Source: a virus. Taken from it: a stretch of 58,287 nucleotides of DNA. Shown one piece after another: positions 14,473-58,287 of this stretch (position 1 is the first letter of the stretch; each line of letters begins with the position of its first letter). Position numbers and translations under genes: made by a program. Location: the IMG/VR virus record IMGVR_UViG_3300045988_068176, positions 1 to 58,287 of that record. The stretch is one strand, 5' to 3'. The notes below the pieces were generated by a model. The model saw nothing but the letters and a program-made list of their open reading frames with translations. It was not told the origin of the DNA and ran no database searches.

Positions 14473-14476
14473 GGTT

Positions 14477-14644: not shown

Positions 14645-14654
14645 GATATCCTCC

Positions 14655-16290: not shown

Positions 16291-16326
16291 GCAGGCAGTC
16301 TTTCCAGCTGTCTGCTTTTTCTTTTT
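16291..16326 (+). terminator. plus-strand-oriented terminator inside a minus-strand gene array
   Basis: GCAGGCAG...CTGTCTGC stem followed by TTTTTCTTTTT on the plus strand only. Confidence 0.55.
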
Positions 16327-16338
16327 ACACCATCCGCT

Positions 16339-16785
16339 TTATATCTTGGTAATGGTCCAATATTTCTGTAGACTATAGATAAACTCTACACGGTATTGTA
16401 CGGTTACTCCATCCGCGCTTGTTGCCGTCAGAATTGTACTTACGTTCGAGTTTCTAGTATGTGAAAGAACACAGGTCGTATCGTTTGAGCTTAAGATGCC
16501 AATGCCAGATACTGCAGATGGGGCTGTAGTATTCCATGTTACTTTCTGGTTCGTCGCGTTACTCGGTGTAAATACTGCGGTGATGGTTGGTTTGTCGGCA
16601 TATTTGTCGTTCAGTGTCAGTGTAATTCCCGTCACCGCCACATAGCTCTGGTGCACCAGCCTGGCCTTCCCGCCGACGCCGACGTACACTTTCTTGACTT
16701 TTCTTGCCTTTCCGCCGACGCCGACGTACAGGGCCTTGACGTGCCGGGCTTTGCCGCCGACGCCCACAAATAAATTCTTTCCCAT
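16339..16785 (-). CDS. tail-fibre-associated protein with YVGVGGKARxVKx repeats and an Ig-like (Big_2-like) domain
   Basis: 148 aa; three 13-aa repeats then ITLTLN...VTWNTTAPSAV. Confidence 0.6.
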   Translation of the reverse strand: MGKNLFVGVGGKARHVKALYVGVGGKARKVKKVYVGVGGKARLVHQSYVAVTGITLTLNDKYADKPTITAVFTPSNATNQKVTWNTTAPSAVSGIGILSSNDTTCVLSHTRNSNVSTILTATSADGVTVQYRVEFIYSLQKYWTITKI

Positions 16786-16797
16786 TTTGATTTCTCC

Positions 16798-17217
16798 TTA
16801 AAGCCATCGGTAGTGCGGCTTCTCCTCGTGGAACAGCCTCCACCGCAGCGCGTCGTCCACAAAAATGCAGAGAACGCTCATCGCCACCCACAGCAGGCTG
16901 AACGGCAGGCAGATCTGTCCCAGCAGGTTGCAGGGCAGGCCCGAGTAGTCCCAGATGCCGAGGCCCAGATATAAATTCAGGATGATCCCCGCCACCAGCT
17001 CCACGGCGGTCACCAGGGCGCTGCCGCAGAGCGCCTGCTTCCAGATGGGCATTTCCCAGGGCAGGTAGTTGTTTAAGCCCCCGATGAGCACAAAGCATAC
17101 CCCGCCCACGATGCCCATGGTCCAGTGGGTGCGGTCCCGCCAGAGCAGCTCCACTCCCATGTAGAGCAACCCGCCCAGCGCCGCTAAGATGGATAGTTTC
17201 ACAAATTCCCGTTTCAT
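16798..17217 (-). CDS. polytopic membrane protein (PF06541/DUF1113-like)
   Basis: Start moved to MKREFVKLS; GGVCFVLIGGLN...GIWDYSGLPCNLLGQICLPFSLLW. Confidence 0.5.
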   Translation of the reverse strand: MKREFVKLSILAALGGLLYMGVELLWRDRTHWTMGIVGGVCFVLIGGLNNYLPWEMPIWKQALCGSALVTAVELVAGIILNLYLGLGIWDYSGLPCNLLGQICLPFSLLWVAMSVLCIFVDDALRWRLFHEEKPHYRWL

Positions 17218-17299
17218 CGCTCCATTGCTCCATTTTGAATTTTTCGCACAAGCCTTTCCTCTTTGCCAAGGGCTCGCCCTTTGGGAGAGCTGGCGAGCG

Positions 17300-17980
17300 T
17301 CAGCGAGCTTGAGAGGGCTCCAGCTTCTTTGCAATGACCTCCACCTGCTCTTTTGCCTTCTGCAGGATGTCCGCCACCTCGGCTTTCAGGTCCTCCGGCA
17401 GCTCCACGCCATAGAAGATGCCCTTCAGCACCTCAAGGCTCGTCTCCCGGCCGATCCACTGCCGCAAAGCGTTGTTGTAGGTGGTCTGCTGGGTGATGGT
17501 GCTCTGCTTTGCCGTGTACAGCGTCACGATGTCGGCGGCGGAGTACAGCTTGCACTGCTTCCCGTCCGCATGGTAGGGGTAGGCCGTGGCCCCCAGCATC
17601 ACCGCGTTGAACACACCGTCGATGTTGGATTGGTCGGGCACTTCCAGCGAGAAATGCTCCTGCGTCCCGTCCCCGAACAGTACGTCGATGCCCGCCGTGA
17701 TGGCCGCTTCGCAGGCGTCGGAGGCTTCCTCCAGCTTTTTCGCCCGCAGCGTTTCCATCTGCTCTTCCTCGGTGGGCGGGGTGGGCACTTCACCGTACTC
17801 GTATACGGTGTACTTCTCGTTTTCGAGGGAGATGCCCCAGTACGTCTCGCCCGGCTGTGCGGTCTCGTTGTGCTCGTTCACCGCCGCTTCCACCGCAGCA
17901 TAGTTGTCGTTCTTCTCTTCGTCCAATACGGGCACTTCGTAGCCCGGCGCGATCGTCTTCTCGTCCATGTCATCCTCCAT
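17300..17980 (-). CDS. DUF4376-like tail fibre accessory protein
   Basis: TLRAKKLEEASDACEAAITAGIDVLF...TLYTAKQSTITQQTTYNNALRQWI; start uncertain (18001 TTG, 17980 or 17968 ATG). Confidence 0.6.
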   Translation of the reverse strand: MEDDMDEKTIAPGYEVPVLDEEKNDNYAAVEAAVNEHNETAQPGETYWGISLENEKYTVYEYGEVPTPPTEEEQMETLRAKKLEEASDACEAAITAGIDVLFGDGTQEHFSLEVPDQSNIDGVFNAVMLGATAYPYHADGKQCKLYSAADIVTLYTAKQSTITQQTTYNNALRQWIGRETSLEVLKGIFYGVELPEDLKAEVADILQKAKEQVEVIAKKLEPSQAR

Positions 17981-17987
17981 TTTGAAC

Positions 17988-19019
17988 TTATTCGTAGACA
18001 AACAGAACTTTATTGGTCGTCAAGCTAGAGTTCGCACCGGGGTCGCTTGATTGTGCACCAAAGGTAAAACCGTTCGCGTTGCCTGCGCCATTAGCGTACT
18101 TCACGTTCAACTCGCTTTTCAGGATGTAGTCCAAATTGTCGCCTGACCAGACTGGAATCCACATATCACTTGTATTGTGATTCCGTCGTGCCGCCACTTT
18201 GGTCATACTTCCAAATGCACCTTGATTGCAGTATGCCAGATTCGACGCAGTTCCGCTGTATGCGCCATTCCAATAGGCCATAAAACCCATATCCGGCACA
18301 TACTGCTGGTCGGTTGCAGCATCTTTCCAGCCACTTGGTCCTACACTCGTCAGCGTCCGAGTTGCTTTGAACGCAGCGCTTCCAAGTTTCGCTTTAATCC
18401 AGTTCCAGAGAGCGCTCAGTGGCTTGCGGCGATAACTCACAGCAGACTCGTTTTCGCCATTAACATGCTGTCCAACAAAGTAATCTGAATCTTTAGGGAT
18501 ATTGTTTTCTACATCTAAGGCTTCAATAAGCTTATTGATGTCTAGCGCGTCCCCAACAGCCTTTGCATCTGCTGGAGCGTTTTCTTTACTTAAGGTCTTA
18601 TCTGTTCCAGCTCTTGAGCCAGCCAGTTCTGCGGCGTCCTCTGCAGCTTTCTGCGCTTTTTGAGCTTGTTCGCGGGATGTGTTGGCATCAATCCGACTTT
18701 TCTCGGCAGCTTCTTTGCTGGCGAGAGCGCTGTCTGTGTAGCCTTTGATAAGCTTTGTTGCGTCGTTGACGGCGTTTCCTGCGGCAGCTTCCGCTTTCTT
18801 ACGGTCTTCCTCCGACTTCTTTGCGGCAGTTTCCGCCTGTATACGCGCAACATCCGCGCCCGCAACGTCACTTAAAGTATTCAGCGTCTCCGCGTTCATC
18901 GGAGTGCCTTCAACCTCAGGTTCATCATTGCGAACCAACGTGACAACTTCCGATGTGCCGTCAGATTTTTTCATTGTCCATCGGCCTGGGTACTTTGCCT
19001 TGCGGTCAACAAATACCAT
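17988..19019 (-). CDS. tail fibre protein
   Basis: Start MVFVDRKAKYPGRW behind GGAGGTG; KYPGR N-terminus typical of Firmicutes prophage fibres; coiled Ala/Lys segment. Confidence 0.7.
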   Translation of the reverse strand: MVFVDRKAKYPGRWTMKKSDGTSEVVTLVRNDEPEVEGTPMNAETLNTLSDVAGADVARIQAETAAKKSEEDRKKAEAAAGNAVNDATKLIKGYTDSALASKEAAEKSRIDANTSREQAQKAQKAAEDAAELAGSRAGTDKTLSKENAPADAKAVGDALDINKLIEALDVENNIPKDSDYFVGQHVNGENESAVSYRRKPLSALWNWIKAKLGSAAFKATRTLTSVGPSGWKDAATDQQYVPDMGFMAYWNGAYSGTASNLAYCNQGAFGSMTKVAARRNHNTSDMWIPVWSGDNLDYILKSELNVKYANGAGNANGFTFGAQSSDPGANSSLTTNKVLFVYE

Positions 19020-19470
19020 AGTAAGGTTCACCTCCACAGATTGGCTCGTCGCAGTAAAGCAAATGATCGTTTGCGATTCGCTCTATCTTGGCCAAAATTT
19101 CTTCGATTTTATTCATGGTCTTGTATGCCAACTTATCCATGCTGGTTGGAGTGCTTGGCAGACCACCGGGGCCGCTGCACTTGGCCCGAATGTTAGATAC
19201 GTTCGATAGCCAGCGATTTGCGTCGCTTGTGGTCATGTATCCTTCCACCGTCCAGTTCGTTTTGATAGAAACAGACGCGCCAAGTGTAGCGGCAAGCTCG
19301 GACACACCACTTTCGATGCGGTTGTAGTCCATGTAGCTCAACGCACCTTTCATGCCAGCTGCCCATTCTATCCGCTCTTCTTCCGTCCACGTTCCAACGT
19401 TGGCTTTATCGTGCAGTTCGTTCACGCGGTCAACGTCTGCCTGCGTTCGGTCTGTAATCCATGTTGCCAT
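19006..19470 (-). CDS. tail-fibre-associated hypothetical protein
   Basis: 154 aa; DRTQADVDRVNEL...GALSYMDYNRIE pattern seen next to fibres. Confidence 0.55.
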   Translation of the reverse strand: MATWITDRTQADVDRVNELHDKANVGTWTEEERIEWAAGMKGALSYMDYNRIESGVSELAATLGASVSIKTNWTVEGYMTTSDANRWLSNVSNIRAKCSGPGGLPSTPTSMDKLAYKTMNKIEEILAKIERIANDHLLYCDEPICGGEPYYGIC

Positions 19471-19482
19471 AAAGTCTCCTTG

Positions 19483-22314
19483 TTAAGTAAGAACGTTTCC
19501 ATTAACATCAACTTCCAATGTGGCTGGAAGAGTAAATGCCGGGAGAACAGGATACTTTTTTGTGACATCAGAAATTGTCGTATATGTATAATAGCTATTA
19601 TTAGACTTGGACGAAGAAACAACAGCAGAATTGTTATACTTGAAAAATTCCGGATAAGCGAATGGCGTTGCATCAAAACATCTTGAGCGAGTCCATGCAT
19701 AATTAGAACTTCCGATAATGTTGTAAAGCATTTCACTGCAATTCGGCAAAGCCGTGCCCTCCTTAGTAATGCCAGAAACGTTAGAGCTCATGCCAAGTTC
19801 TGTTGCAGACAAGAGAAAAACTTTGCGAGATATCCAAGTGACCGCAGAGCCATCAGTCGTATGAGAATTGCCGTCATCGTCTTTATAAGTCTGAGGACCG
19901 GGAGAAACTCGGATGTTTGTATTCTTGATTTTACTGGAAATACTAGAGTCGAGCGTTCTGAAATATTCGCCGTTCAACCACTCGTCAATAGTGCTACCGG
20001 AATATATATTGGTAAAACGACTATCATAGGAAGCACTTTCGGTGCTCCACACATGCGAAAGTACAGTCTTGGAAGAACGAGCGAGCAAAGAAAGGCCTTT
20101 TCCGTTTCCGGGGAATGTTGGCCACTTAGAAGAAGCTTCTTCATAATCATGCTTTGCAAGAACAAATGCGGTTCTTTGATTGCTTTCTTTGATATAAAGT
20201 GTTGTTCCGATGGGAAGAGAGCCAATTGTAGCAGGGCTTGCAACGACAGAACAGGTTGATTTTTCCTCAGCAGCGGTAACGGTAATTGTTGCGCTACCTT
20301 TTTTGAGCCAGGTCACGCGACAGGTCGAAGAACCGTTGCTCTTGGCTACGATATCCAGCCGAACAACGTCAGAAGGAGACGCAGACCAGTTGATTTCAGG
20401 AGCCCCGTAGTTATTAGGTACAAACGTTGCGGTGATATCCTGCGGAGCGCCCCAACGAACGCCAAGAGCGCGTGTGCTCAAGTACAAAGAAGGAGAGTTG
20501 TTGACGACCGGGATTGACGAGCTGACAGAGCCAACGTATGCCGAAACGGTAGCATTTCCCTTGCGATTGTACTTGACCTCACAGGTGGATTTGCCGGATT
20601 CGTTTGTAAGAACGCGAAGCGTGACGATTCCTTCCGGCGAAGCGCGCCAGCTGACAGTAGGCAAGTCGGGGTCATAAGGCAGAAGTTCTGCGGTCAACAC
20701 CTTTGGCTCATTGTAAATCAACGACAGAGAAGACGAGGACAAAGACACGGACGAAACGTCTGCCAGGACATAGCCGGAAATCGTGCCTTTGAAACAGCCC
20801 GTATACTGGTATTTGCTTTCCGTTACGAAGACGCTGGATGCGTAGCCAAAGTTGTGATTGAATTTTACGTGGTCAAATGCATCGATGTGCGGGCTGGCGC
20901 GATACTCAAGTTCGACCTTTTTGCGGTTTGCTAGCATAGCATAAGCTTCAGTGATGGAGTTCTTGCTCTTGACAAGCATTGCTTCGGTCAGCAGCTCGTT
21001 GCTGACGGTCTGGGTGACGCCTTCCGCGTTAGAGCCTTCCGGGTACAGATGCTCTTTGCCATTAACGTTGCAAGACACATTCTTGACGCGGGACGCAAAA
21101 GAGATTTCAGGCCACTGGAAGTTATTGATAACTGGAATCTCGTATACTTCAGTTCCCTCTTCTGCGGTCAAGTTGACTCGCTCGATACGAATGTGACCAT
21201 CTCGCGTCTGGTACAAAGCCATACCCGCTGCGTTTGCGGCCAATTGCAGGATGTCTGAGTTCTTGTACGAAGTTTTTTCGGAAGAAATATCGGTGCTGTA
21301 TTCTTTTAGCTCTTCGGAAATGTAGAACGAAGGAACATTAGAGGGCAACGTCTCCAGTGCGTCGTAGCACATCTGATAAAGCGTGCCCGTCTTTCGACCC
21401 GTGTAGTTTGAGGTCATCATGAACTCAAGGGCATCACGAGCCGTGAAAGACGCTTCCAGGCCATTAGAAGGGACGCTCCATTCCGAAAGATAGAATTTGC
21501 CGCCATTAATCCATTGCGTTTCTCCATCCACATCCATGCCATAACGGACGTCCACTTCCTGCCGTTCATACAGATATCGAAACATGCCGCGAGGGTTGAT
21601 AGCATCCCACGTTTTTTGGCTGTTGTCCAAAGAGAATTCGATGCTGTCTTTAGGAAGCTGCGCCGAGATCGGGTCTCGGCTGGATGTGTGCGTGTACGAA
21701 ACAAGGTCTTTTTTGCTATATACCTTGTGAAGGCCGACCATGATCCATTCAATGCGAGCACGACGATTTGGAATGCTCCATTCCAGAATGTCAATGGCAA
21801 TGGAGTCGTAACCGTAAATTTCCCATTCGGTCTCAGAATAAACGCTTCTGTTGTTCGATACAGTGATGGTGCTCACAACGGAGGTTCCTTTATAAGCCGT
21901 GAGCTTGAATTTAGTTGCCCATTCATTCATCATGGACGACCAAACAATCGTCAAACCGGGAACGGCACGTGTGTGCACGCTGCCGAACGAAAGGATAATG
22001 CGCGGGTGGTTGGAATCGCTTACAAGCGTCTGGCTGATAAAACCAGCATCCCCATAGGGGACAGAATCCGGCAACAATCTGAAACTACCGTCCAGAACGT
22101 GCAGATTTGTTTCCCCTGTTGCATATTTCGTCAATACACGGTCAAGTTCCTTCGTGGTATTTTCGATATTACCAAAAGGAACCTGTGCAGTTGCGCTTGC
22201 GGTGGCATCCTCTTGAACGCCTGGTTCGGTGCTATTGTAAGAAATCTCAACAAACTCTTCCGGCACAAGAGTATCGTTGAACTTATCAAGCCATGCTTGA
22301 GATGGATGTTCCAT
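19483..22314 (-). CDS. tail-tip/receptor-binding structural protein with Ig-like repeats
   Basis: 943 aa directly after the Dit-like gene; two tandem Ig-like segments (LTAELLPYDPDLPTVSW / ITATFVPNNYGAPEINW). Confidence 0.75.
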   Translation of the reverse strand: MEHPSQAWLDKFNDTLVPEEFVEISYNSTEPGVQEDATASATAQVPFGNIENTTKELDRVLTKYATGETNLHVLDGSFRLLPDSVPYGDAGFISQTLVSDSNHPRIILSFGSVHTRAVPGLTIVWSSMMNEWATKFKLTAYKGTSVVSTITVSNNRSVYSETEWEIYGYDSIAIDILEWSIPNRRARIEWIMVGLHKVYSKKDLVSYTHTSSRDPISAQLPKDSIEFSLDNSQKTWDAINPRGMFRYLYERQEVDVRYGMDVDGETQWINGGKFYLSEWSVPSNGLEASFTARDALEFMMTSNYTGRKTGTLYQMCYDALETLPSNVPSFYISEELKEYSTDISSEKTSYKNSDILQLAANAAGMALYQTRDGHIRIERVNLTAEEGTEVYEIPVINNFQWPEISFASRVKNVSCNVNGKEHLYPEGSNAEGVTQTVSNELLTEAMLVKSKNSITEAYAMLANRKKVELEYRASPHIDAFDHVKFNHNFGYASSVFVTESKYQYTGCFKGTISGYVLADVSSVSLSSSSLSLIYNEPKVLTAELLPYDPDLPTVSWRASPEGIVTLRVLTNESGKSTCEVKYNRKGNATVSAYVGSVSSSIPVVNNSPSLYLSTRALGVRWGAPQDITATFVPNNYGAPEINWSASPSDVVRLDIVAKSNGSSTCRVTWLKKGSATITVTAAEEKSTCSVVASPATIGSLPIGTTLYIKESNQRTAFVLAKHDYEEASSKWPTFPGNGKGLSLLARSSKTVLSHVWSTESASYDSRFTNIYSGSTIDEWLNGEYFRTLDSSISSKIKNTNIRVSPGPQTYKDDDGNSHTTDGSAVTWISRKVFLLSATELGMSSNVSGITKEGTALPNCSEMLYNIIGSSNYAWTRSRCFDATPFAYPEFFKYNNSAVVSSSKSNNSYYTYTTISDVTKKYPVLPAFTLPATLEVDVNGNVLT

Positions 22315-33607: not shown

Positions 33608-33685
33608 TGGTGCTGCATAATGGATTTGAACCAATGTATGTCCGGTTATGAGCCGAATGCTCTAGCCATACTGAGCTAATGCAAC
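33608..33685 (-). tRNA. tRNA-Met/Ile2 (anticodon CAT), CCA encoded
   Basis: Hand-folded: acceptor GTTGCAT/ATGCAGC, D-arm GCTC..GAGC, anticodon loop CTCATAA, T-arm ATTGG-TTCAAAT-CCATT, then ACCA. G1-C72 pair argues against an initiator. Confidence 0.8.
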
Positions 33686-34092: not shown

Positions 34093-35760
34093 TCAGAATG
34101 GCCTTTTTATTGGTTCAATTTTACTGATTCCGTTATACAATTCATCGGCAAGCTGTGCCAGACTGTCCGGCGCATCATCGTGCGGAACTTTGCCAAGCTG
34201 TGTGAACATCGTCACCTGTTCCATGAACGCCTTGTACTCTTTCGACTGGTGCTTCTCATCAAGGAAATAGAACCGTTTGATGTCCGGCGCATACTGGATA
34301 ATTCTTGACAGCTTGCTTTGACCGCTTGGCGCACGCTGGCTACGGACGGAGCAGTGATAGCCTTGCTGCCGGAGCTGGCTGTCTACCACGTCACAGTATT
34401 CATCGCCGCCGTTGTTGGCTTCACCACGCACCACGTTGATTTTGTGCTGGATGATTTTTCCGACAACCTCTGGTCTGGTCACGGTCTTATCGCCATTATT
34501 AAACACAAGGTCGGGGATGAACACAGCATCACCGTACACATAAGCGACAGGGCAAGCCGTGAAGTCACCGCCACCCCATGCAATGTCCATAACCATGAGC
34601 TTACGATCAGGCTCACCATCAGGCAGAACGCCGTTGAAATACCGCAGTTCATCGGCAGGGAACAGCAGACCTTCACGCACATAGGGCTTGCCCATATACT
34701 TCGCCCACCATGTTGCGTCATCAATGCTGGCTTTCATATCGGCATAGTAGGCATCGTCAAATCCAACGCCATAGTCATAATTAAAGTTGCTGTGTCCGTT
34801 CTCGTCCACCGCAGGAATCACCCGGAATCTGTACTTTGGATTGTCTGCATACTGGTTCTGAATGCGCCCAAGAGGGTCAAGCACGTTCCAGCGTGTGCCG
34901 ACCATCAGCTCTAAAGCGCCTTGCTTTTTACGGTCTTTCAGCTGGTTCAAATAGGCATCGTACTTGTTGTTCAGACGCTCAACGTTCAGGCTTTCCTCCA
35001 AGTCCTCGATCAAGTCATCGCTGTACAGAACGCCGCCCTCGCCGATTTCAACAGCACCAGTCAGCGTACCGCCGATGGAGCGACAAGTCAGGGTGGGGAA
35101 GCGCTTCTTTCGGTTCAGGTCAACGCTTTCGTCCTTTGCGCTCTTGTCCACAAGCTGAACGTCAGGGAATATTTTACCCCAGTTGTAAGTTACAGGGTCT
35201 GTGATGATGGACAGCACTTCACCATAGAAGCCATTGGTCAGCTTGTCAGAGTGTCCGCTCATAACCGATGCAACGTCAGGGCGGTTGCCCATCAGCCATG
35301 TAATGAAGAAGATGCACAGCGTGGACTTGCCAACGCGAGCAGGTAAGCTAACGCCCAAGAAGTCAATGCGCTTATAAAACAAGTCCTCTAGGTCATTTGC
35401 CAGCACTTTCAGAACCCTGCGTCTCGGCTGATAGAACTTCTTCTCCGGCGCACGGTTCCATTCAAGGTAGATGCAATAGCTGTCGAACACATCTTTTGCT
35501 TCAAACAGGTACGTCCGGCTGATAATGTCATAGACCTTCGCCACGTCTTCGCCTGTTTTCATCTTACCCATCATGGCTGCACAGACAGAGCGTAGCTCAC
35601 CAGAGTATTTGTAGGCATCGAACCGCTTGTCTTGCGGCAGAGCATCTCTCAGGTTCACCACCGCCTGAAACCAGTCCTCATAGACCTGCGCTTCGGTCGG
35701 ATTCTGCTTTGCATACGCTTTGATGCTTTCGATGATGGCGATACACTGCTTTGGCTGCAT
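34093..35760 (-). CDS. terL: terminase large subunit
   Basis: Start MQPKQCIAI; Walker-like LPARVGKSTL; C-terminal nuclease-like half; adjacent to portal. Confidence 0.85.
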   Translation of the reverse strand: MQPKQCIAIIESIKAYAKQNPTEAQVYEDWFQAVVNLRDALPQDKRFDAYKYSGELRSVCAAMMGKMKTGEDVAKVYDIISRTYLFEAKDVFDSYCIYLEWNRAPEKKFYQPRRRVLKVLANDLEDLFYKRIDFLGVSLPARVGKSTLCIFFITWLMGNRPDVASVMSGHSDKLTNGFYGEVLSIITDPVTYNWGKIFPDVQLVDKSAKDESVDLNRKKRFPTLTCRSIGGTLTGAVEIGEGGVLYSDDLIEDLEESLNVERLNNKYDAYLNQLKDRKKQGALELMVGTRWNVLDPLGRIQNQYADNPKYRFRVIPAVDENGHSNFNYDYGVGFDDAYYADMKASIDDATWWAKYMGKPYVREGLLFPADELRYFNGVLPDGEPDRKLMVMDIAWGGGDFTACPVAYVYGDAVFIPDLVFNNGDKTVTRPEVVGKIIQHKINVVRGEANNGGDEYCDVVDSQLRQQGYHCSVRSQRAPSGQSKLSRIIQYAPDIKRFYFLDEKHQSKEYKAFMEQVTMFTQLGKVPHDDAPDSLAQLADELYNGISKIEPIKRPF

Positions 35761-35831
35761 AAAAAAATAGGCACCCCCTACCTGAAAATGTAAAGAGTGC
35801 CTACAACTGCACAAAAATCAAATATTCGGTT

Positions 35832-37064
35832 TTATTCTCCGGCTTTGAAATTGTAAATCGGCTTAATATGCTTTACAATATCAACGGTTGGAGAGATTGC
35901 GTTGATAATTTCCTGCGCTGACTTATATGCCATCGGGCATTCATCCAACGTGGATTCATCGGCTGACGTAGTATAAATTCCATTCATTTGCTTTTGGTAT
36001 TCCTCAACGCTGAATGCTTTTTTAGCCGCTGTTCTGCTATATAGTCTGCCAGCACCATGTGGTGCAGAAAAATTCCAATCAGGATTGCCCTTACCAACGC
36101 AAATAAGGCTTCCGTCTCTCATATTAAGAGGAATAATCAGCTTCTCACCCTCTCTAGCGGATACAGAGCCTTTTCGGATAATATCATCCGATTCATCAAT
36201 GTAGTTATGAATGGTTTCAAAGAAGGACGCATGGGTCAGCATAGAATTGATTCCAACGCCGTATAAAATGGTATGCATAATTCTTGCTCTGTTCATCCTC
36301 GCAAAAGCCTGACAAATTCGCATATCATTAAGGTAGGAATCACGTTCTTCGCCTTCAAGATAGCAAAGTTCATTCGGAATATCAGGGAACTGAACATCCA
36401 ATTCTTTGATTTTTTGCGAGATTTCTTGTTCACGACCCTGCGCTTTCAGTTCCGCAATTAGATGTTCCGTAGCGTCTTTTCTTTTATTCTTTCCTTTAAG
36501 ATTTGAAATGGCTACGCTTTGATGATATTCTGCGACTTGCTTCCCAAGATTTCTGCTTCCAGTATGGATAACAAGGTACTGGTTTTTTTCTTCATCTTCG
36601 TCCAGCTCGATAAAATGATTGCCACCGCCCAAAGTACCCATGCTACGAAGAATCCAGTCAACATTATGTAGGCTATCTTTGCAATCAAGCTGGCCAAGGA
36701 AAGAATCCGACATTTTCTGCGATTCGTGAACATTCATTCCAGCCGGAACTCGTTCTCTGATTACTTTATCTAACTTTTTCGGGTCGATGTGTTCAATTCC
36801 AAGTTCAGCGACAAGCATTCCGCAGCCAATGTCCACGCCTACAATATTCGGAATGACTTTCTTGCCCAAGTTTGCCGTAAACCCAATTACACACCCGGAA
36901 CCAGCATGAACATCTGGCATAATTCGAATTTTGCATCCGTCAACAAAGCTCTGATTACAAAGCGTTAAAATCTGCTCAGATGCCTTATCTTCAATATTGT
37001 CCGTAAACACCTTTGCAGACGCATATTTTCCTTCAATCGTTTTCAACTTGTTCTCCTTTCTCAT
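35832..37064 (-). CDS. rtcB: RtcB-family RNA ligase
   Basis: IMPDVHAGSGCVIG, GVDIGCGM, GGGNHFIE, HTGSRNLG, PHGAGR motifs; true start may be the TTG 7 codons in. Confidence 0.9.
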   Translation of the reverse strand: MRKENKLKTIEGKYASAKVFTDNIEDKASEQILTLCNQSFVDGCKIRIMPDVHAGSGCVIGFTANLGKKVIPNIVGVDIGCGMLVAELGIEHIDPKKLDKVIRERVPAGMNVHESQKMSDSFLGQLDCKDSLHNVDWILRSMGTLGGGNHFIELDEDEEKNQYLVIHTGSRNLGKQVAEYHQSVAISNLKGKNKRKDATEHLIAELKAQGREQEISQKIKELDVQFPDIPNELCYLEGEERDSYLNDMRICQAFARMNRARIMHTILYGVGINSMLTHASFFETIHNYIDESDDIIRKGSVSAREGEKLIIPLNMRDGSLICVGKGNPDWNFSAPHGAGRLYSRTAAKKAFSVEEYQKQMNGIYTTSADESTLDECPMAYKSAQEIINAISPTVDIVKHIKPIYNFKAGE

Positions 37065-37092: not shown

Positions 37093-37668
37093 TCACCTGT
37101 TCTGTTCAGCAATCCGATACCATGTCTGGCGGGTTACGCCAAGCTGTTTGGCAGCGTCCGTGACCGTGAGAATGCGCTTCTCCACCTGCTCATGGAGAAC
37201 GTCAAAGAGGTTGCGGTCATACTCAGTGGGTTTGCGGCCTTCCTTGTAATCAGGGCGCTGGCTGGCAATTTTCTTGCCCTCTCTGGTGCGTTCAACAATC
37301 ATGTCGCGCTCAAACTCTGCAAAGGCAAGCATCACCGTGCGAATAACCTTGCCGGTTGGGGAATTGTTCATAACCCCCATGTTCAGGATGTTCACCGAAA
37401 CGCCCTTATCAATGAACTGGTCTATCAGTTCAAGGCCATTCTTAGCGGAACGGGCAATACGGTCAAGTTTCGCCACGATCAGCGTATCTCCCGGCTGGAT
37501 TTCATCCATTAGCTTATCCAATTCAGGCCGATGCAGCTTCGTGCCGGTGTAAACATCTGAAAAGATTTTCTGTGCGCCGTTAGCTTTCAGAAGTTCCGAC
37601 TGGGCTTCAAGACTATTGCCATCAATCGCCTGTCCAGCGGAACTGACACGAGCGTAACCGTAGATCAT
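37093..37668 (-). CDS. small serine recombinase (resolvase/invertase family)
   Basis: 191 aa; [13 protein letters not shown] catalytic Ser, [15 protein letters not shown]-terminal [22 protein letters not shown]. Confidence 0.9.
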
Positions 37669-37984: not shown

Positions 37985-38013
37985 ATGATAACACATTCTT
38001 ATGTTTATGTCAA
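37985..38013 (-). promoter_or_regulatory. promoter TTGACA, 17 nt spacer, TATCAT with an operator in the spacer
   Basis: Minus strand TTGACATAAACATAAGAATGTGTTATCAT; 24/29 identical to the unit at 41176-41204. Confidence 0.65.
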
Positions 38014-38190
38014 CATCTTCTTGTGTTTTTTGCGAATTTTTACTATCAACATGGTGGTAAAACGGCTGTAAACTTTTTCGTTGCTTTACAAACTGTATAC
38101 TTGAATAGTAGCCTTACGAATTATCGAAAAATATACTTTCGAGCTCTACCATTGAAGTAAACTAATCCGTTTACAAAATCATTATCAAAT

Positions 38191-38206
38191 AACGTAAATT
38201 TACGTT
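38191..38206. promoter_or_regulatory. perfect 16-bp palindrome AACGTAAATTTACGTT
   Basis: Between divergent promoters upstream of the recombinase operon; candidate operator or recombination core. Confidence 0.4.
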
Positions 38207-38257
38207 AGAATGAGTAAAAATCAGAAATATCTGATGCAAATTATACAAATTGGGCTG

Positions 38258-38286
38258 TTGACAACTATATACCAAGCGTCTATAAT
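38258..38286 (+). promoter_or_regulatory. consensus sigma70 promoter TTGACA, 17 nt spacer, TATAAT
   Basis: -35 at 38258-38263, -10 at 38281-38286; both hexamers perfect. Confidence 0.75.
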
Positions 38287-38498
38287 CTAAGACAGCAGAA
38301 CACACGATAAATTAGCCAACAACGGTAGATTTATCCTTTGTGGCATAAAAAATAGGCCATCAGCACCACCGACCAAAGTTGCACTGATGACCTATTCCAC
38401 CACAAAACAGAAGCTGCGCAACCAAGGGCGCAGTCTCGGTTTCTGTCAATTATTATAGCAGAAGCAGACCGCTTCTGCAATAGAAAGGAGCAAAAAAC

Positions 38499-40792: not shown

Positions 40793-41152
40793 TGTAGATT
40801 CCTCCCTTTCAAGGCTTGTAAGGCAAGTATAGCACAGAACACAGACCCTTTGTAGGGGTCTTTTTGTTTTTGCGGGAAATTTTTGAGATTGGCGATAGGG
40901 GTGGGGTGTTTTTTGAGCCTTTTTTATTTTTTCGGTGGTGACGGGATTCACCTGCCCCACCCCCGGCGTTCCCTGTATACCCTGCCGGTGCATCCCCGCC
41001 CACTCCAGCGCACCCGGACAGACTGTACAGCACAGGCAGCAGGGCAGGCCATGCCAGATGCAAGGCAGACCTTACTGGCGGCGATGCTGGAGGGCGGGCA
41101 ACGTGTCCGAAACTGTGCAGATTTGGACACACTCAAACATGAACGATTTTCA

Positions 41153-41225
41153 ACACAAGAATGTGTGCAAAACCATTGACACCAACACAAGAATGTGTTA
41201 CTATATAGACAACACAAGAATGTGT
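41153..41225 (+). promoter_or_regulatory. promoter TTGACA, 17 nt spacer, TACTAT with three ACACAAGAATGTGT operators
   Basis: Operators at 41153-41166, 41185-41198 (inside the spacer) and 41212-41225; -35 at 41176-41181, -10 at 41199-41204. Confidence 0.7.
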
Positions 41226-41255
41226 TACACCACCACAAAACAGGAGGACAAAACC

Positions 41256-41684
41256 ATGAAAAAGACCATTGATTACACCGCACTTGCTGATACTATCCGC
41301 GCAGAACTCAACGCCCGCCACGATCGCAGCGCATGGGATAAAGCTGTTACGTTGTACGCTCTCGACCTGCTGGACGATGTGCAGGAGGGTGCAAACAATA
41401 TGGAGCGCCTGCCCATTGACGGTGCAGAGCTTGAACAATGGGCGCTCAACGGTGCAAGCTGCTGGGAGCAGTACAGCAACGGCGGTGGCTCCATCTACTA
41501 TAACGCTGATATTGCCGCCCGTGTCTGCACCCCGTCCGAACTCAAGCGCAAGCGCGGCGGAACGTACGAACCTAACAGCCGGGAAACGTGGCTTGACGTG
41601 CAAGCCCGCGCACTGTATCAGGCTTGCAACCGTATCCGCATTATCTGCCGCACCAACGGCTTATATTGCAAGGGGGTGCAGTAA
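41256..41684 (+). CDS. hypothetical protein
   Basis: 142 aa; CAGGAGGA RBS; start inside the 249-aa track ORF. Confidence 0.6.
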   Translation: MKKTIDYTALADTIRAELNARHDRSAWDKAVTLYALDLLDDVQEGANNMERLPIDGAELEQWALNGASCWEQYSNGGGSIYYNADIAARVCTPSELKRKRGGTYEPNSRETWLDVQARALYQACNRIRIICRTNGLYCKGVQ

Positions 41685-41685
41685 T

Positions 41686-41781
41686 ATGATTGCATTTGAT
41701 GCAACCCAATGGGCAGCCCTCTGGTATGTGGGCGGCATGATTTCCGGCGCGCTTGTTATGATTGCATTTCTTAACAGCTAA
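41686..41781 (+). CDS. possible 31-aa membrane peptide
   Basis: MIAFDATQWAALWYVGGMISGALVMIAFLNS behind GGGGGTG. Confidence 0.3.
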   Translation: MIAFDATQWAALWYVGGMISGALVMIAFLNS

Positions 41782-41798
41782 TAAGGGGGAGCAAAACG

Positions 41799-42137
41799 AT
41801 GAAATATCATAAAATTAGAGGGGTGGACAAATCCACCTGCACAGCAGAGCAAAAAATCGCCTACAATATGGCGTGGTACATCTGGAACGACTGCCGCTAT
41901 AACTGGGCTGACTGCCGTACCCGTATCGACTGGAGCGAACAGGAGAACGCCGCTATCCGGGACTATACGGACAACTGGCAGTGCAACTATGCAGAAAAAA
42001 ACAAAAGGTACGATATTGATAGTATCTTTTGTGCCTTGCGTGCAGGGTTGCACGACTACTTGACCGGCTCCGCACACGTCCTAATGAGTTATCAGGATAT
42101 TGGGGCAGCATTCCCGGCAAATTATATGGAGGGTTAA
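41799..42137 (+). CDS. hypothetical protein
   Basis: 112-aa ORF; GGGGGAG RBS. Confidence 0.55.
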   Translation: MKYHKIRGVDKSTCTAEQKIAYNMAWYIWNDCRYNWADCRTRIDWSEQENAAIRDYTDNWQCNYAEKNKRYDIDSIFCALRAGLHDYLTGSAHVLMSYQDIGAAFPANYMEG

Positions 42138-42140
42138 AAA

Positions 42141-42404
42141 ATGACTGAGTTTGAAAAGAAAGTGAATGAGTACAGGGAAAACAAGCGCCTTTTGGAAGAG
42201 CTTGAAGCCCTAAACGATGCAATCAAAACAGATATAATTGCAATGATGCACGGCGCACCTGAAATGGTGCAGGGCACTGCAAAGGCTATTTACAAGGATG
42301 TTTCTTCCGTCCGGCTTGATAGCAAGCTTTTGCAGGCCGCACACCCGGATATTTATGCCGAGTGCAGCAAAAAGACCGTTTACAAGCGGTTCAGCGTGGT
42401 TTGA
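42141..42404 (+). CDS. hypothetical protein
   Basis: 87-aa ORF in the same operon. Confidence 0.55.
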   Translation: MTEFEKKVNEYRENKRLLEELEALNDAIKTDIIAMMHGAPEMVQGTAKAIYKDVSSVRLDSKLLQAAHPDIYAECSKKTVYKRFSVV

Positions 42405-42598: not shown

Positions 42599-42673
42599 AC
42601 CGATCGGATACTTTAGCAGGGCTGCACCGATAAAAGCAACCCCGCCCCATTGCCCAAAAGGGCAAAAATATTT

Positions 42674-42969: not shown

Positions 42970-42980
42970 CAAAATCTTAA

Positions 42981-43046
42981 CCCCGCCCACGCTGGCGGGG
43001 CTTTTATTTTGCCTTGCATCTGCTGAGGATGCGGGGCTTTTATTTT
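42981..43046 (+). terminator. two tandem rho-independent terminators
   Basis: CCCCGCC...GGCGGGG then CTTTTATTTT; CCTTGCATC...GATGCGGGG then CTTTTATTTT. Confidence 0.75.
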
Positions 43047-44401
43047 GTCCCGCTGCAATGCAGCCCTATACAAGCGTTTACAGTGCGTTTTGTGCTACCC
43101 ATGCAGTTATACCGCCCACACCACAAAATGCGCACAGGGCTTTGCAGACGCTTTTCCTGCGATTATGCCCGCTCAACCATCCACGATACCAGACCGACAC
43201 AAACGGCTATAATACCACATACGACACGCTGGAGCACGTCACAGCGGCGCAGCGCCTCCAGCACGTACCAGATACCAGCGCCACGCCGGATGCTATACAG
43301 GCCAGCACAGCCACCATATTATAATAATGTATATAAGGGTGCGCCCCTGTTATGGATCCATGCAAGACAGTGCAGCATACCACAGACCATGCAAACCCGG
43401 CGGGGTCAGCTCCTACCGTCTGCGGATTGCTGGCAAGCGCTACACCCAGCGGGTCAGTCCAGCAGCAGGAGCGCGGCGGGCGGCGCGGAACCATTGGCGG
43501 CTCTCGCCGCATCTCTTTTCGGGCTTTCGCCCGATAGCCAATAGAGGTCAGCAATAGTCGTAGTGTCCCGGCTGGAATAGTCGTAACAGGTTCTGGAATA
43601 GTCGTATCCAATAGTCGTAGTTTCTCCAATAAAATAGTCGTAAAGTCGTCAGATGACCAGTTTTTGAAAGTCCTATATATTGTATAGTAACGAGTAGCTC
43701 GCTGATAGTCGTAGAGTAATAGTCGTAGCATTTTCTTGCGAGCTATCGTCAAATAGTCGTGTATTTTTTGTGTGAAATAGTCGTTCTCCTTTTAGAGAAA
43801 GAGAGGTGCGATAGTCGCTAAGCCATCAGACCACCTCAAAAATCAATAGCTGTCAATACACCTATCAATTTTAATCCCAATCGCATTACCTCAAAATATT
43901 TAACCATCGTACTTATTATAATAGTCGCAGACAATTACTCAATCTTTTTAACTATTATTCTGATGGAATAATTGTATCATTCGATTCGGTTCGTTCTTCT
44001 CCGATTTAATTACCGACAACTACAATCATATCACACCAACCAACTAGGATTATCCATTCGGCAAATGCCTCAATACTTTTAACTATCTAATAAGACTATC
44101 CGGCTGGTCAGTCACTTTCAATTTGTAATCAACTGCTTATACAGTCATGCAACATTTTTACATATCAAGCCGACTGCGAAATGAAGTCAATTCTCCATGT
44201 GGAATAGTCGTAGACCATCCACCAGTCCGAACCTCACGCCAGCTCTTGCCTACGGTCTGCTCTGCTGGCTAACGGTGTAGCTTTGGAGATAGAGGGTTGT
44301 AGGGGGAAAGAACCTTTGCAAAAACATCTAGTTGTCGTTTTCAGTCGTCGCAGTTGTCGCACCATTTTGGCGTGGGGGCCTCAAACAATTTATTTGTTTG
44401 A

Positions 44402-44468
44402 GGGGGGAGTTAGGGGGATTATAGGGGGTAATAGGGGTTGTAGGGGAAAGAGGGGGAAGAAAGGGGGG
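44402..44468 (+). repeat. array of seven G4-G6 tracts at about 11-bp spacing (TAGGGG-type)
   Basis: G-runs at 44402, 44413, 44424, 44434, 44443, 44452 and 44463; preceded by a 10-bp hairpin at 44379-44403. Confidence 0.85.
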
Positions 44469-44484
44469 AAGATTGGATGCGAAC

Positions 44485-44519
44485 GCATGCAAGCGCATTC
44501 ATTTGCATGCAAACGCATA
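44485..44519 (+). repeat. two direct 14-bp boxes GCATGCAA(G/A)CGCAT, 20 bp apart
   Basis: 44485-44498 and 44505-44518; the 13-mer ATGCAAACGCATA recurs inverted at 47003-47015. Confidence 0.8.
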
Positions 44520-44713
44520 ATGCTGATAGTCGTAGCCATATCAGCCCAAACGCTACTCGATCGATACGGTTCCTACTCAAAATCAGACCTTGCCGTTTTC
44601 TCTCGATAAATAACAGAAGAAAAAAGCACGGAATAGTCGCAGAGGGTAGTTTTACTACCTGACACCATTCCATGCTTTCTGATACGTTTGTTGATTGGAG
44701 ATTTTAGCGGAGA

Positions 44714-44995
44714 TTAGATTCTACCATCTGCTTGCATCTTGCGCATACGCTCCGCAGCCGCTTCTTTCTGTTCGTCCGTCATAATTCTTGTGGTTGCAAA
44801 CCGCACAAGTCGCTTGGGCATCTCATACCACTTGCCGTCCTTGTCCTGCTTGACCAGCTTGTACGACACAGGCTCCCGCTCGCACAGCTTGTCAAGCTTG
44901 CGCATATACACCGGGTCAGCGGTATAAACCGATGCAGTATCTTCCGCTGCATTGAAGTTGACGATGGTCTCTTGTTCCAGTCGAGTGATGTTCAT
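44714..44995 (-). CDS. hypothetical protein
   Basis: 93-aa ORF with RBS. Confidence 0.55.
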   Translation of the reverse strand: MNITRLEQETIVNFNAAEDTASVYTADPVYMRKLDKLCEREPVSYKLVKQDKDGKWYEMPKRLVRFATTRIMTDEQKEAAAERMRKMQADGRI

Positions 44996-45135
44996 AATCG
45001 TTTTCCTCCGTTTGTTGATTGACGAAAAATATTTATGGGGTTCAGACGATAACTTTATCGCCCAGACCCTGTTATCTGTTTTTCTTGCCTATTCTACTGT
45101 AACGATACGAGCGCAGAAGCAATGCTAGGCTACTA

Positions 45136-45411
45136 TCACTCAATCGTTTCGTATGTTTTCTCGAAAATGTCAGGTTTGCACGGGTAGATTTCGCCATTTA
45201 CGCCACGAATGATATAATCGCCAGTCCTCGCAATCATAGTCCCTTCAAGCGTTTTAATCTCGCACCACGCAGGGTCATCGTGAAACTTTCCGAAGTCGTG
45301 CGTGATAATATCGTTGCTACTTACTGCATCCCAGAACCAATCTTCTCCAACAAGGCCTCGTGCATTGAGCTTGAATGCTTCGATAACAACTGGCTTCTTG
45401 CGGTATTTCAT
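45136..45411 (-). CDS. hypothetical phage protein
   Basis: 91 aa; [16 protein letters not shown]-terminus common in phage ORFs. Confidence 0.55.
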
Positions 45412-45427: not shown

Positions 45428-46651
45428 TTACATCCACACGCATTCTTTGAACTGCTGTGTTTCCATCTGGAACGTGATGTCTAGTGACCCCACGTTACCC
45501 TCTTTGTTCTTCTCAAGCGCAAAGTGATAATGCTGCTCCGGCCGCTTTTTCGTAGTCACGTTCTGTGCCAGCAAGATGATTGCATCTGCGTCCTGCTCGA
45601 TTTGCCCGGATTCTCGCAAGTCTGCGGCAGTTGGCGGGATACCTGCTCTTGCGGTCTCTCGATTAAGCTGTGCAAGTGCTATCACCAGCGTTCCTGTGGA
45701 CTGTGCGAACTCATGTAGTGCCATGCTGATCTCCGTTACGGCACTGTATCGGTCTTTCGCTCCGGCTTGATGGATAAGCTGCAAATAGTCGATGAAAACC
45801 ACTTTGGCTTGCATCCTGATAGACTGCGTTCTAATCCACCCAACGCTCTTACCAGCGGCAGAGCGGACGAACAGCGGATATTTCTTGATAGCTGCCAGCC
45901 GGTCAAGTTCGTTAATGCTGACGGTCTTGTTTTTGACCGTGTGCAGTGGTACGCCTAGCTGGTTTGCGATGATACGAGCATAGAGCGTATCCGGGTCTGT
46001 CTCTAGGCTGAAATACGCCACTCTGCGTCCGTTCTTGGCTATTTCACAGGCAAGTTGCAGGGATAGTGCTGTTTTACCAGCAGACGGTCTGCCGCCGATT
46101 ACAACGAAGTTGCCCGGCACAAGGTGCAAGTTGTTATCCAGCACTCTAAGCCCTGTGCTGATATACTCCGGCTTATCATCCAGCTTGCGGATATAATTGT
46201 CTATGCCGTCACACATCGGGATGAAATCGCTTCTCTCGTTGTGCAGGTTGATAGCTTCTCCTAGCTGCTCATAAATGCCTGTCAGGTCTGCGTACCTGGT
46301 CGATCCATCAACGATCTGGAACGCAATCTCTCTGGCTCTGGACAACGCTGCCTGTTCCTTGACGATTCCAGCCCATCCAAGCATCATGTCATGGGTAACG
46401 TTGCGGATGAACTCTGCACCAAAGGCATCCAGGCATTCACCCATTGCTTTCTTGCAGTTATCGTACCGCCCCATGACTTCTACCGGGTTCCACTTGTCGT
46501 TGTGTTCCCAATAGCCACGAATGGCAGCGAATGTATCACGCAGTTCAGGGCAGAAATCGTCGATTTTAAGGTCTTGCAGCACATCGGCGTATTCCGAGAA
46601 CGTAAGGACTGCCCCCAGCAGGATGTACTGGGTCTGATTTTCAATATTCAC
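45428..46651 (-). CDS. dnaB: DnaB-like replicative helicase
   Basis: [22 protein letters not shown] Walker [27 protein letters not shown]. Confidence 0.9.
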
Positions 46652-47316
46652 CGCAGAAAATCTCCCTCGTCAGGCAATTCAGCCATTGTCTGCTGATAGC
46701 CACCGTTCCAATCCTTCACGTTACGCATCCAGTTCCGTGCAGCAGCTTTCCAGTCCTTCATAGGCGATTTTCCAACCTTCCAGCCATTTGCCGTGAAGTG
46801 GTCAACAAACCGCTCTGCTTCTGATTCCATGTAGCCCTTCTCGGAAAAGTATTCTCTGGCTTGCTCGACAGTCGGTGCTTTAAAGCGTTTTACTTCGTTG
46901 GTATTTTTCTTTTCACATTTTTCTTTTTTATCAGATTCAGATACAGAATCAGATACAGATAAGGCATCGTTTGCATCCATTTGCATATTTTGCATACCAG
47001 CGTATGCGTTTGCATCATTGGTATGCGTTTGTATGCACTTGCATTTTTCATCGTTCCAACGCTTATTTGCACTCCGTCTGTTTTTCTCGATTCGCTCCTG
47101 TCTTTTCTGTGCATTCATATCATCGAACGCCTTAACAACTTTCCAGAGCATCCGCATAGCACGATCGTCGTCGTACGCTGGCTCAAGTCCGGTCTCAACG
47201 TATTGTGCGTAGTTGCGGACGAATGCTCCAAATTCCTCGTCTGTCAGCTCGTCCATCGCATGAACGTGTTCCAGCAGAAGAATCATTGATGTTCTCGGCT
47301 TGTGTTCCTGCTCCAT
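46648..47316 (-). CDS. replisome organizer / DnaD-like replication initiation protein
   Basis: Start at ATG 47316 (AGAGGA RBS). N-term LTDEEFGAFVRNYAQYVETG; C-term FVDHFTANGWKVGKSPMKDWKAAARNWMRN. Confidence 0.65.
   Translation of the reverse strand: MEQEHKPRTSMILLLEHVHAMDELTDEEFGAFVRNYAQYVETGLEPAYDDDRAMRMLWKVVKAFDDMNAQKRQERIEKNRRSANKRWNDEKCKCIQTHTNDANAYAGMQNMQMDANDALSVSDSVSESDKKEKCEKKNTNEVKRFKAPTVEQAREYFSEKGYMESEAERFVDHFTANGWKVGKSPMKDWKAAARNWMRNVKDWNGGYQQTMAELPDEGDFLR
46971..47044. repeat. origin-like repeat cluster inside the organizer gene
   Basis: TTGCAT at 46971, 46981, 46990, 47010 and 47039; TATGCGTTTGCAT at 47003 and TATGCGTTTGTATG at 47022. Confidence 0.7.
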
Positions 47317-47318
47317 AT

Positions 47319-47492
47319 TCAGTCCTCTTTGTAGCGTTTGTTCCACGCTTCGATGGCTTTTTCTTCACTAATAGCATCGGATGTCTCAACTCCACAATTA
47401 TTGCACATTACAAAATAAGTCATACCGTATCCAAATAATCCTATTTGGGGCGGCTTTGCGCCGCAGAATGGGCATCTCTTAAGTTCTTCCAT
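47319..47492 (-). CDS. lar: Lar-family restriction alleviation-like protein (57 aa)
   Basis: MEELKRCPFCGAKP...VMCNNCGVETS...EEKAIEAWNKR; GGAGAAAAAGG RBS; below the track cutoff. Confidence 0.65.
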   Translation of the reverse strand: MEELKRCPFCGAKPPQIGLFGYGMTYFVMCNNCGVETSDAISEEKAIEAWNKRYKED

Positions 47493-58160: not shown

Positions 58161-58287
58161 TCTGCATTCCTCCATTTGTTGGTATGATGTGTTGCACGGC
58201 TGATTTTTTTGTTTTTACGGTCGTCATATTCATTTTCCGCAGTAACACCAAGTGCGCACATGAAAAGTGCCACAGCCAAAAGCAAAA
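58157..58287 (-). CDS. 3' part of the wrap-around membrane protein gene (see 1..215)
   Basis: Same frame continues from the terminal repeat to the TGA at 58159..58157, which overlaps the next ATG. Confidence 0.55.
   Translation of the reverse strand, partial: LLLAVALFMCALGVTAENEYDDRKNKKISRATHHTNKWRNAE
58203..58287. repeat. second copy of the 85-bp terminal repeat
   Basis: Identical to 1-85. Confidence 0.9.

Follow-up and report, generated by a model that had tools for sequence, protein, structure and literature searches.

In bacteriophage SPP1, one replication origin (oriL) lies inside gene 38 and another (oriR) is intergenic, each combining repeats with an AT-rich DNA unwinding element (DUE). 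The replisome organizer gp38 binds both the repeats in its own gene and those in oriR, and the stalling of replication forks at gp38-bound oriR has been proposed as the trigger for the switch from theta to sigma replication (PMC6316719). In the Staphylococcus pathogenicity islands (SaPIs), the helicase gene is followed directly by the origin, in which 6-12 short iterons flank a central AT-rich stretch (PMC9371898). Here we analyze a 1.7-kb non-coding locus, at positions 43047-44713 of the IMG/VR virus record IMGVR_UViG_3300045988_068176, that carries 14 copies of the heptamer ATAGTCG in one orientation. The whole record (58,287 nucleotides, hereafter the window) has identical ends over 85 bp (1-85 = 58203-58287), giving a closed circle of ~58.2 kb, and encodes tailed-phage structural genes alongside a plasmid module comprised of a Rep_3 initiator, iterons, ParA, and a ParG-like ribbon-helix-helix (RHH) protein. 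A vegetative replication module, encoding a DUF6291/DnaD-like organizer and a DnaB-type helicase, is found on the minus strand.

Judged from its conservation among relatives, the array is clearly functional DNA. An earlier note on this sequence had left four options for it: a lytic origin, a centromere, a pac site or small terminase (TerS) loading array, or a regulator sink. These can now be narrowed; the anatomy of the locus favors an origin-type element because a cluster of boxes, the second least stable segment of the genome, which is AT-rich, and 10-bp units of the kind present in the organizer gene occur in it together. On this basis, the interpretation that we tentatively consider best supported is that the locus belongs to the vegetative replication module and acts in cis as an origin-type element. 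Elements of this kind are already known; the motif is new.

The locus shares several features with the origins of SPP1, which has a gp38 organizer and a gp40 DnaB-type helicase: in both, a DnaB-family helicase gene comes after that of the organizer, the repeats within the latter recur in an intergenic locus beside a DUE-like AT-rich segment, and that intergenic locus is bracketed by transcription signals. Unlike in SPP1, there is a second and far more numerous class of box, RATAGTCGnA, which is absent from the repeats of the organizer gene and does not follow organizer type; in addition, no helicase-loader gene is present and the organizer has a DUF6291 N-domain. As in the SaPIs, short repeats lie downstream of a helicase gene and are split by an AT-rich region. 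However, SaPI iterons are opposed on the two sides, whereas the boxes of this family point one way (1606 vs 18), and the split is very unequal here (~10 boxes vs 1-4). The SaPI reader is the C-terminal winged-helix domain of a self-loading superfamily 3 (SF3) Rep helicase, whereas the helicase in the window is of the SF4 DnaB type, matching DnaB_C over residues 164-402, with no further Pfam domain found.

Direct repeats together with an AT-rich segment also recall the iteron origins of Rep_3 plasmids and the oriR-incA arrangement of P1, and a second array could control copy number as incA does, but the iterons of this element, cGTGTACAaAAAGTGGAG (GTGTACA..GTGGAG), are unrelated to the box. Five of them, 21-23 bp in both length and spacing, are arranged as direct repeats within 5317-5841, behind AT-rich TTaTTTATCTC repeats. 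The same replicon has two inverted single iterons upstream, half-sites in the promoter, and a one-mismatch DnaA box at 5572. Finally, type Ib/II centromeres such as parC of R1, parH of TP228, and the omega heptads of pSM19035 are comprised of ~10 short same-orientation repeats that are bound by RHH proteins. The array resembles these in the number, length, and direction of its repeats, but theirs are contiguous and regular, lie beside the par operon, and double as its operator, none of which applies here.

Conservation and selection of the ATAGTCG boxes

ATAGTCG has 17 exact matches in the window, against a mean of 3.43 (standard deviation 1.76, maximum 9) in dinucleotide-preserving shuffles, 0 of 100 of which reached 17. 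The 14 copies on the plus strand of the locus (43554, 43577, 43598, 43611, 43634, 43705, 43719, 43753, 43777, 43811, 43921, 44204, 44526, and 44633) span 43554-44639, and only three lie outside it, which equals chance expectation. The genome-wide count thus bears out the earlier note as to the enrichment of the motif, the position of each copy, the spacing of the first five (23, 21, 13, and 23 bp), the degenerate AAGTCGTCA that follows the fifth, and the further copy inside the helicase gene. When a weight matrix built from all copies was run across the genome, no second cluster of boxes was found; the copies lie in one cluster and are not over-represented genome-wide in the manner of Chi. Only two strong arrays of short repeats are present in the genome, the boxes and the Rep_3 iterons at 5.3-5.8 kb. 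The spacing of the boxes is irregular (11, 13, 14, 21, 23, 24, 34, 47, and 58 bp and longer); many values are near multiples of ~11.5 bp (11, 23, 34, 47, 58), and 13, 14, 21, and 24 bp also occur.

The family to which the window belongs is very common in human-gut metagenomes. It is carried by over 600 IMG/VR contigs, and a single helicase cluster already comprises 2025 sequences. Type 1 is comprised of 271 IMG/VR contigs that carry this helicase at 97-100% identity, and type 2, a second clade, of 344 contigs with a helicase that is ~65% identical and a different organizer. From these we drew 57 type-1 regions and 71 full type-2 loci. Every relative that reaches the locus has the array (57/57 and 71/71, respectively), and wherever a locus extends far enough the array follows the helicase gene on its downstream side, so that both its reported position directly downstream of the organizer-helicase genes and its conservation in related phage-plasmids hold throughout. 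There are 8-16 boxes per locus in type 1 and 9-17 in type 2, while two more diverged relatives, L141 and L144, have 13 and 16. Their orientation is almost invariant, with 703 forward and 10 reverse boxes in type 1 and 903 and 8 in type 2. Relatives differ by the gain and loss of single boxes, and among the 57 regions 56 are unique.

When orthologous columns are compared, the box cores stand out, with a pairwise identity of 0.95-0.97 against 0.82-0.86 in the remaining columns of the locus (Mann-Whitney p = 3e-9); the neutral yardstick, the four-fold degenerate sites of the helicase gene, gives 0.78. By this measure purifying selection acts on the box cores. Its footprint, RATAGTCGnA, takes in positions -1 to +6 and +8, or 9 specified bases within 10, with position +7 being neutral (pairwise identity 0.75). 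The core of the extended consensus proposed earlier, GGAATAGTCGTAG, is therefore retained, while its extension was overstated, as selection is seen only on RATAGTCGnA. As delimited by these alignments, the footprint is the size of that of a single helix-turn-helix or winged-helix domain.

The motif had not been recognized from any described system, and our search of the literature likewise yielded no match. No DnaA boxes (TTATCCACA-like 9-mers with at most one mismatch) are present in 43000-44713. A scan of 185,579 species genomes for three AATAGTCGT boxes separated by gaps of 4-28 bases returned 57 matches, all of them regular tandem repeats in unrelated taxa, while the same pattern in IMG/VR retrieved almost only the family itself.

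Anatomy of the locus

The features of the locus are collected in Table 1. In 57/57 versions their order is the same: a GC-rich leader, twin hairpins, 4-11 boxes, a window of at least 200 bp at 28-35% GC, and 1-4 more boxes. Among 12 mechanically called open reading frames in 43000-44713, none is intact in more than 26 of the 57 relatives, and the lengths of homologous segments differ by non-multiples of three, in keeping with the earlier view that no convincing gene lies here. The boundaries given in that note also stand: a terminator scan places the tandem hairpins at 42981-43037, the first of which scores on the minus strand too, and a 93-aa gene ends at 44714. The accessory-gene position beyond it is mosaic among relatives, and no gene is universal there.

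The segments evolve at different rates. The leader has a pairwise identity of 0.77-0.81, with gaps making up half of it in part, which corresponds to a neutral rate with many indels; 49 of the 57 versions share less than 93% identity among themselves and nearly every genome has its own. We have no explanation for the retention of the leader in every relative despite this neutral evolution. Pairwise identity rises to 0.88-0.91 in 43481-43835 and is 0.84-0.87 in 44151-44713. The twin hairpins are formed by GCGGC-TCTC-GCCGC, followed by a T run, and then CGGGC-TTTC-GCCCG, and they are kept in L141 and L144. Between the conserved parts, the AT-rich middle (43836-44150) has an identity of only 0.705 and has been subject to mosaic replacement, but its low GC content is kept throughout. 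In windows of 100, 200, and 300 bp it is the second least stable duplex of the genome, followed closely by the AT-rich stretch at the Rep_3 iterons. The least stable duplex is at 37989-38300, between the late operon and the plus-strand early operon, and is presumably a divergent promoter region. The run of G tracts right of the conserved block is C-rich and G-poor in a minus-strand transcript, and as such it may act as an insulator resembling a Rho-utilization site or may be G-quadruplex-forming DNA.

Table 1 Features of the box locus and of the genes discussed with it (window coordinates)
Feature	Position	Strand	Remarks
Rep_3 initiator gene	5878-6981		
ParA gene	7308-8078		256 aa
ParG-like RHH gene	8389-8961		N-terminal tail resembling ParG
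Two tandem intrinsic-terminator-like hairpins	42979..43046	+	Close the plus-strand operon; 17-nt direct repeat GCGGGGCTTTTATTTTG x2
GC-rich leader, no boxes	43047..43480	.	445-680 bp in relatives, always present
Conserved AT island, promoter-like match TATACA-17-TATTAT	43294..43336	+	Putative
Conserved twin hairpins just before first box	43481..43550	+	Pairwise identity 0.90; terminator-like match
Dense cluster of 10 RATAGTCGnA boxes (43554 to 43811)	43553..43820	+	Also degenerate AAGTCGTCA at 43643
AT-rich segment, 25-38% GC	43836..44150	.	One box (43921); resembles a DUE
Highly conserved block, ATGCAACATTTnTACATAT ... AAAATGAAGTCAATTCTCCATG, box 44204, ... TTTGGAGATAGAGGGTTGTAGGGGGAAAGAACC	44147..44320	+	From alignment
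Three 9-10-bp units with GTCG core, AGTTGTCG / CAGTCGTCG / CAGTTGTCG	44331..44362	+	
Run of seven G4-6 tracts	44400..44472	+	In 52/80 type-2 loci
Four tandem 10-bp units, ATGCGAACGC / ATGCAAGCGC / ATTCATTTGC / ATGCAAACGC ('a' cluster)	44477..44516	+	Same kind as organizer-gene repeats
Two distal boxes, 44526 and 44633	44526..44639	+	
Two small accessory genes (93 aa, phrog_1709; 91 aa, phrog_419)	44714..45411	-	
DnaB-family replicative helicase	45428..46651	-	One box copy inside at 45785
DnaD-like replisome organizer	46648..47346	-	DUF6291 N-domain, disordered linker, C-terminal 3-helix bundle
~7 units of ATGCAAACGC-like 10-bp repeats in organizer linker-coding part	46967..47044	-	Adjoins AT-rich stretch

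Organizer-type repeats inside and outside the organizer gene

The genome has just two exact copies of the 10-mer ATGCAAACGC, at 44507 and 47006, in each case within a tandem cluster of like units, the former in the non-coding locus and the latter in the linker-coding part of the organizer gene. In its arrangement the in-gene cluster looks like an origin of the SPP1 oriL type. Two alleles of the organizer linker are found, A with ATGCAAAcGC units and B with ATACGAATGG / ATACCAAnnn units, and the non-coding site of type-1 loci (L004-L083) has the matching alleles a or b, or both. These a/b clusters are present in 57/57 type-1 genomes and in only 2/80 type-2 genomes, the organizers of which are without these linker repeats; the clusters therefore follow the type-1 organizer at the level of the clade.

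The box follows none of the linked initiators

The earlier note had implied that the organizer reads the boxes. This does not fit the relatives, as three organizer N-domains and two helicase types share an identical box. The DUF6291 N-domain was rejected as the reader on the grounds that at least three strongly diverged forms of it (window/L141, L144, and type 2) occur with the same box, the N-domain of L144 being ~25% identical to that of the window/L141 type. The C-terminal domain of the organizer was rejected as well; it is absent from type-2 organizers, and 43 type-2 loci that lack this domain and the RepA_N-like gene keep the array. Structural searches added little about the organizer: an AlphaFold2 model (predicted local distance difference test score, pLDDT, of 60) retrieved nothing with E < 4 from the PDB using Foldseek, a sequence search of the PDB gave no match, and we found nothing in the literature on DUF6291. 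The homologue matches listed for the helicase were all at least 95% identical and hence of no use for analysis of co-variation.

Other linked proteins fare no better as candidates. The Rep_3 initiator has iterons that differ from the box, and there is no ATAGTCG at 5317-5841. A RepA_N-like winged-helix protein, encoded between the helicase gene and the array in 37/80 type-2 and 5/80 type-1 loci, is accessory only and has three in-gene iterons of its own, AGGTGAAnGATTGTTCACCTC (L195 5112-5816; L272 6365-7084). Its C-terminal module is common to the type-1 organizer. A gene intervening between helicase and array was likewise rejected as the source of the binder, as gene content there is mosaic, with no universal family, and the interval is as short as ~430-560 bp in some loci. 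In this comparison the array is an orphan, its dominant box being independent of all linked initiators. Since there is no co-variation with these, the binder would be a conserved protein that the phage encodes elsewhere, or else a host factor.

A possible origin-type element and the evidence against it

We infer protein binding, melting, helicase loading, and an insulator role at the locus, which together would operate as follows. A sequence-specific DNA-binding protein would occupy the asymmetric, monomer-sized boxes, ~10 of them in 270 bp and 1-4 on the far side, so that the nucleoprotein complex would sit against an easily melted 300-bp AT-rich segment. The DnaD-like organizer would then load the phage DnaB-type helicase at this segment. 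In type 1, a distance of ~300 bp separates the AT-rich segment from the 10-bp units of the organizer itself, which are a second copy of the in-gene repeats, comparable to oriL and oriR of SPP1. The terminators on the left and the C-rich tract on the right would stop both converging operons from transcribing through the site. As in iteron origins, a cluster of direct repeats abuts an AT-rich unwinding-type element in all 57 versions, and the cluster is linked to replication genes.

A number of observations weigh against an origin. The box tracks no initiator, whereas in an iteron origin repeat and initiator would be expected to co-vary; an identical box is found with two helicase types (~65% identity), whether the RepA_N-like gene is present or absent. 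Moreover, repeats of their own are already associated with all of the initiators, upstream iterons in the case of Rep_3 and in-gene repeats for the organizer and the RepA_N-like protein. All boxes run in the same direction on both sides of the AT-rich segment, unlike those of SaPI origins. Within type 1 the linker alleles A and B are not matched to a and b, 18 of the 25 B-type genomes having only 'a'. Distant helicase relatives (cluster P0243, 35-47% identity) have no comparable array within 5 kb, and phage L143, which has the window-type N-domain and no DnaB helicase, has no array. When the walk was extended to further distant helicase clusters, P0244 and P0246 gave nothing and P0241 led only to type 2 again. 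Lastly, a widespread, clonal lineage that lacks most of the organizer and helicase still has 13-14 boxes. In this lineage (L266-L270), a 1.4-kb deletion (window 45711-47123) joins organizer residues 1-74 and the C-terminal ~90 residues of the helicase in one reading frame; it is comprised of at least 24 contigs from genomes of ~55 kb with 99.85% identity. Because it is clonal, the lineage says little about long-term selection; as its sequences read, the vegetative replication proteins can be dispensed with, at least over short periods.

A more novel idea is that the boxes are a 'common landing pad' that is independent of the initiator and marks one melting site for interchangeable replication modules, or a polar fork trap governing the change from theta to rolling-circle replication. 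We regard this idea as doubtful. The landing pad may be readable by a host factor or an unlinked phage protein, and the modules in question may be the two organizer-helicase types and the optional RepA_N-like initiator.

Alternative explanations

The array could instead be the centromere (parS) of the ParA/ParG-like RHH system, lying 35 kb from the par genes, comparable to N15 with its dispersed centromeres. The element is a phage-plasmid that encodes Rep_3, ParA, and an RHH protein with a ParG-like tail; both the array and the RHH protein (at least 89% identity on contigs of either type) are invariant across the two replication-module types; the lineage without organizer and helicase keeps the array; and short same-orientation repeats with a 7-bp core resemble the omega heptads and parC. 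However, a better candidate is found at the par genes themselves. In the linker-coding part of the RHH gene (8463-8672) there are 21 units (A..aAGCCrA) with an exact period of 10 bp (lag-10 autocorrelation 0.56, z = 8.4), a period kept in 65 distinct alleles. Third codon positions are more conserved in this region (identity 0.91) than in the rest of the gene (0.79-0.83), and first and second positions less so (0.95 vs 0.97-0.99), reflecting a relaxed constraint on the amino acids. We consider 8463-8672, which has the signature of a DNA-level element, a likely in-gene centromere for the adjacent ParA, which makes the earlier premise that no parS lies next to parA doubtful. Because an array under DNA-level selection is located in the ParG-like gene, the box array is probably not the centromere. 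In addition, type Ib centromere proteins normally autoregulate through the same repeats, but no box above 9 bits occurs within 1-19500 and none is near the par or rep promoters; the boxes are irregularly spaced (11-34 bp and more) rather than contiguous; and a centromere would leave the AT-rich segment and the organizer-type units unexplained. We therefore think it unlikely that the boxes serve in partition. About as unlikely, in our estimate, is a polar replication-fork barrier, in which a tightly bound array of protein 2.4-3.5 kb from the candidate in-gene origin would halt one fork and thereby impose unidirectional replication or the theta-to-sigma switch. Known fork barriers are polar, and the strictly uniform orientation of the boxes would suit this role, as would the independence of the array from initiator type, the Sak4-like and RecU-like recombination functions encoded by the genome, and the proposal that forks stalled at gp38-bound oriR trigger the switch in SPP1. 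Against this, no Tus-, RTP-, or other contrahelicase-like protein was identified, 14 sites are far above the number in known bacterial barriers, the conserved AT-rich segment is left unexplained, and the proposal is inference throughout.

If the array were a decoy, or a platform or sink serving some regulator or host factor that has no part in initiation, for example a repressor of phage DNA synthesis that depends on sporulation or growth phase, this would account for an orphan binder that co-varies with no neighboring protein, as well as for the confinement of the boxes to one insulated locus. Phi29-type phages carry boxes for host Spo0A near their origins, and there is a loose similarity between the 0A box, TGTCGAA, and both the GTCG core and the TGTCG units at 44331-44362. 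All of the boxes have A for the T of the 0A box and T for its A, though, and so do not match the Spo0A consensus; no similar irregular array was found in the 185,579 species genomes, and a sink would not need the adjacent AT-rich segment. On balance such a platform is rather improbable. Packaging is a much weaker contender. The array could be a pac site around which a TerS ring wraps phased repeats, given the many spacings near multiples of 11.5 bp, its independence of replication-module type, and several partial contigs that end inside 44130-44600. Known pac sites are located in or beside terS, but the locus is ~8 kb from terL (34093-35814), with a whole plus-strand operon between them. Partial IMG/VR contigs of ~30 kb often end at ~44130-44600 and 41000-42300; these ends scatter around the G-tract and the allelic a/b site, with the second cluster in the mosaic region at 41-42.3 kb, and full-length contigs start at many different positions. 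The ends at the G-tract, the a/b site, and the mosaic genes are most likely assembly breaks rather than physical ends of the DNA, and we consider a pac site very unlikely. Least probable of all is a long non-coding RNA in which the boxes act at the RNA level. A minus-strand promoter-like TTGAGT-16-TATAAT (43942 to 43915) and a terminator-like hairpin (43002-42979) could bound a transcript of ~900 nt with 10 boxes, but the promoter-like site lies in a mosaic segment and is not conserved, and the 430-bp leader evolves neutrally. The locus has no Rfam match at gathering thresholds or with E values up to 5, and RNAalifold on the best-conserved block (44140-44330, 25 diverse sequences) gave 0 compensatory pairs at -10.9 kcal/mol.

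Genomic context and host

The window has other features near the locus and elsewhere. Just left of the locus, a RAGATH-5 RNA at 42604-42656 (plus strand) scores above the Rfam gathering threshold, as do a DUF3800-VIII RNA at 13493-13556 and a tRNA at 33611-33685 (both minus strand). Also to the left is a conserved 87-aa gene (42141-42404); its match to a RecE-like exonuclease family is confined to the C-terminal part of that family. Directly upstream of the large terminase gene, the spot where a small terminase would be expected is occupied by genes for an RtcB RNA ligase and for a small serine resolvase (35832-37064 and 37093-37668, minus strand). With respect to the host, the helicase and Rep_3 proteins have no relatives in GTDB representative genomes (185,579 species genomes), there is no match in the plasmid database, and the sole hint is one NCBI bin, 'uncultured Ruminococcus sp.'.

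Implications for the family

To a specialist, the one surprising feature of the possible origin-type element is the uncoupling of the box from the type of initiator. If the landing-pad or fork-trap reading is true, it would separate the marking of the origin from the specificity of the initiator, unlike in textbook iteron origins. The site at which DNA synthesis starts, and its mode, are preconditions for engineering these phage-plasmids and for reading their replication state from metagenomic coverage, and the same knowledge bears on how one element runs a plasmid replicon (Rep_3) beside a vegetative one. Identification of the protein that binds RATAGTCGnA may bring to light the means by which replication is controlled in the whole family, be it a host factor or a shared phage protein.

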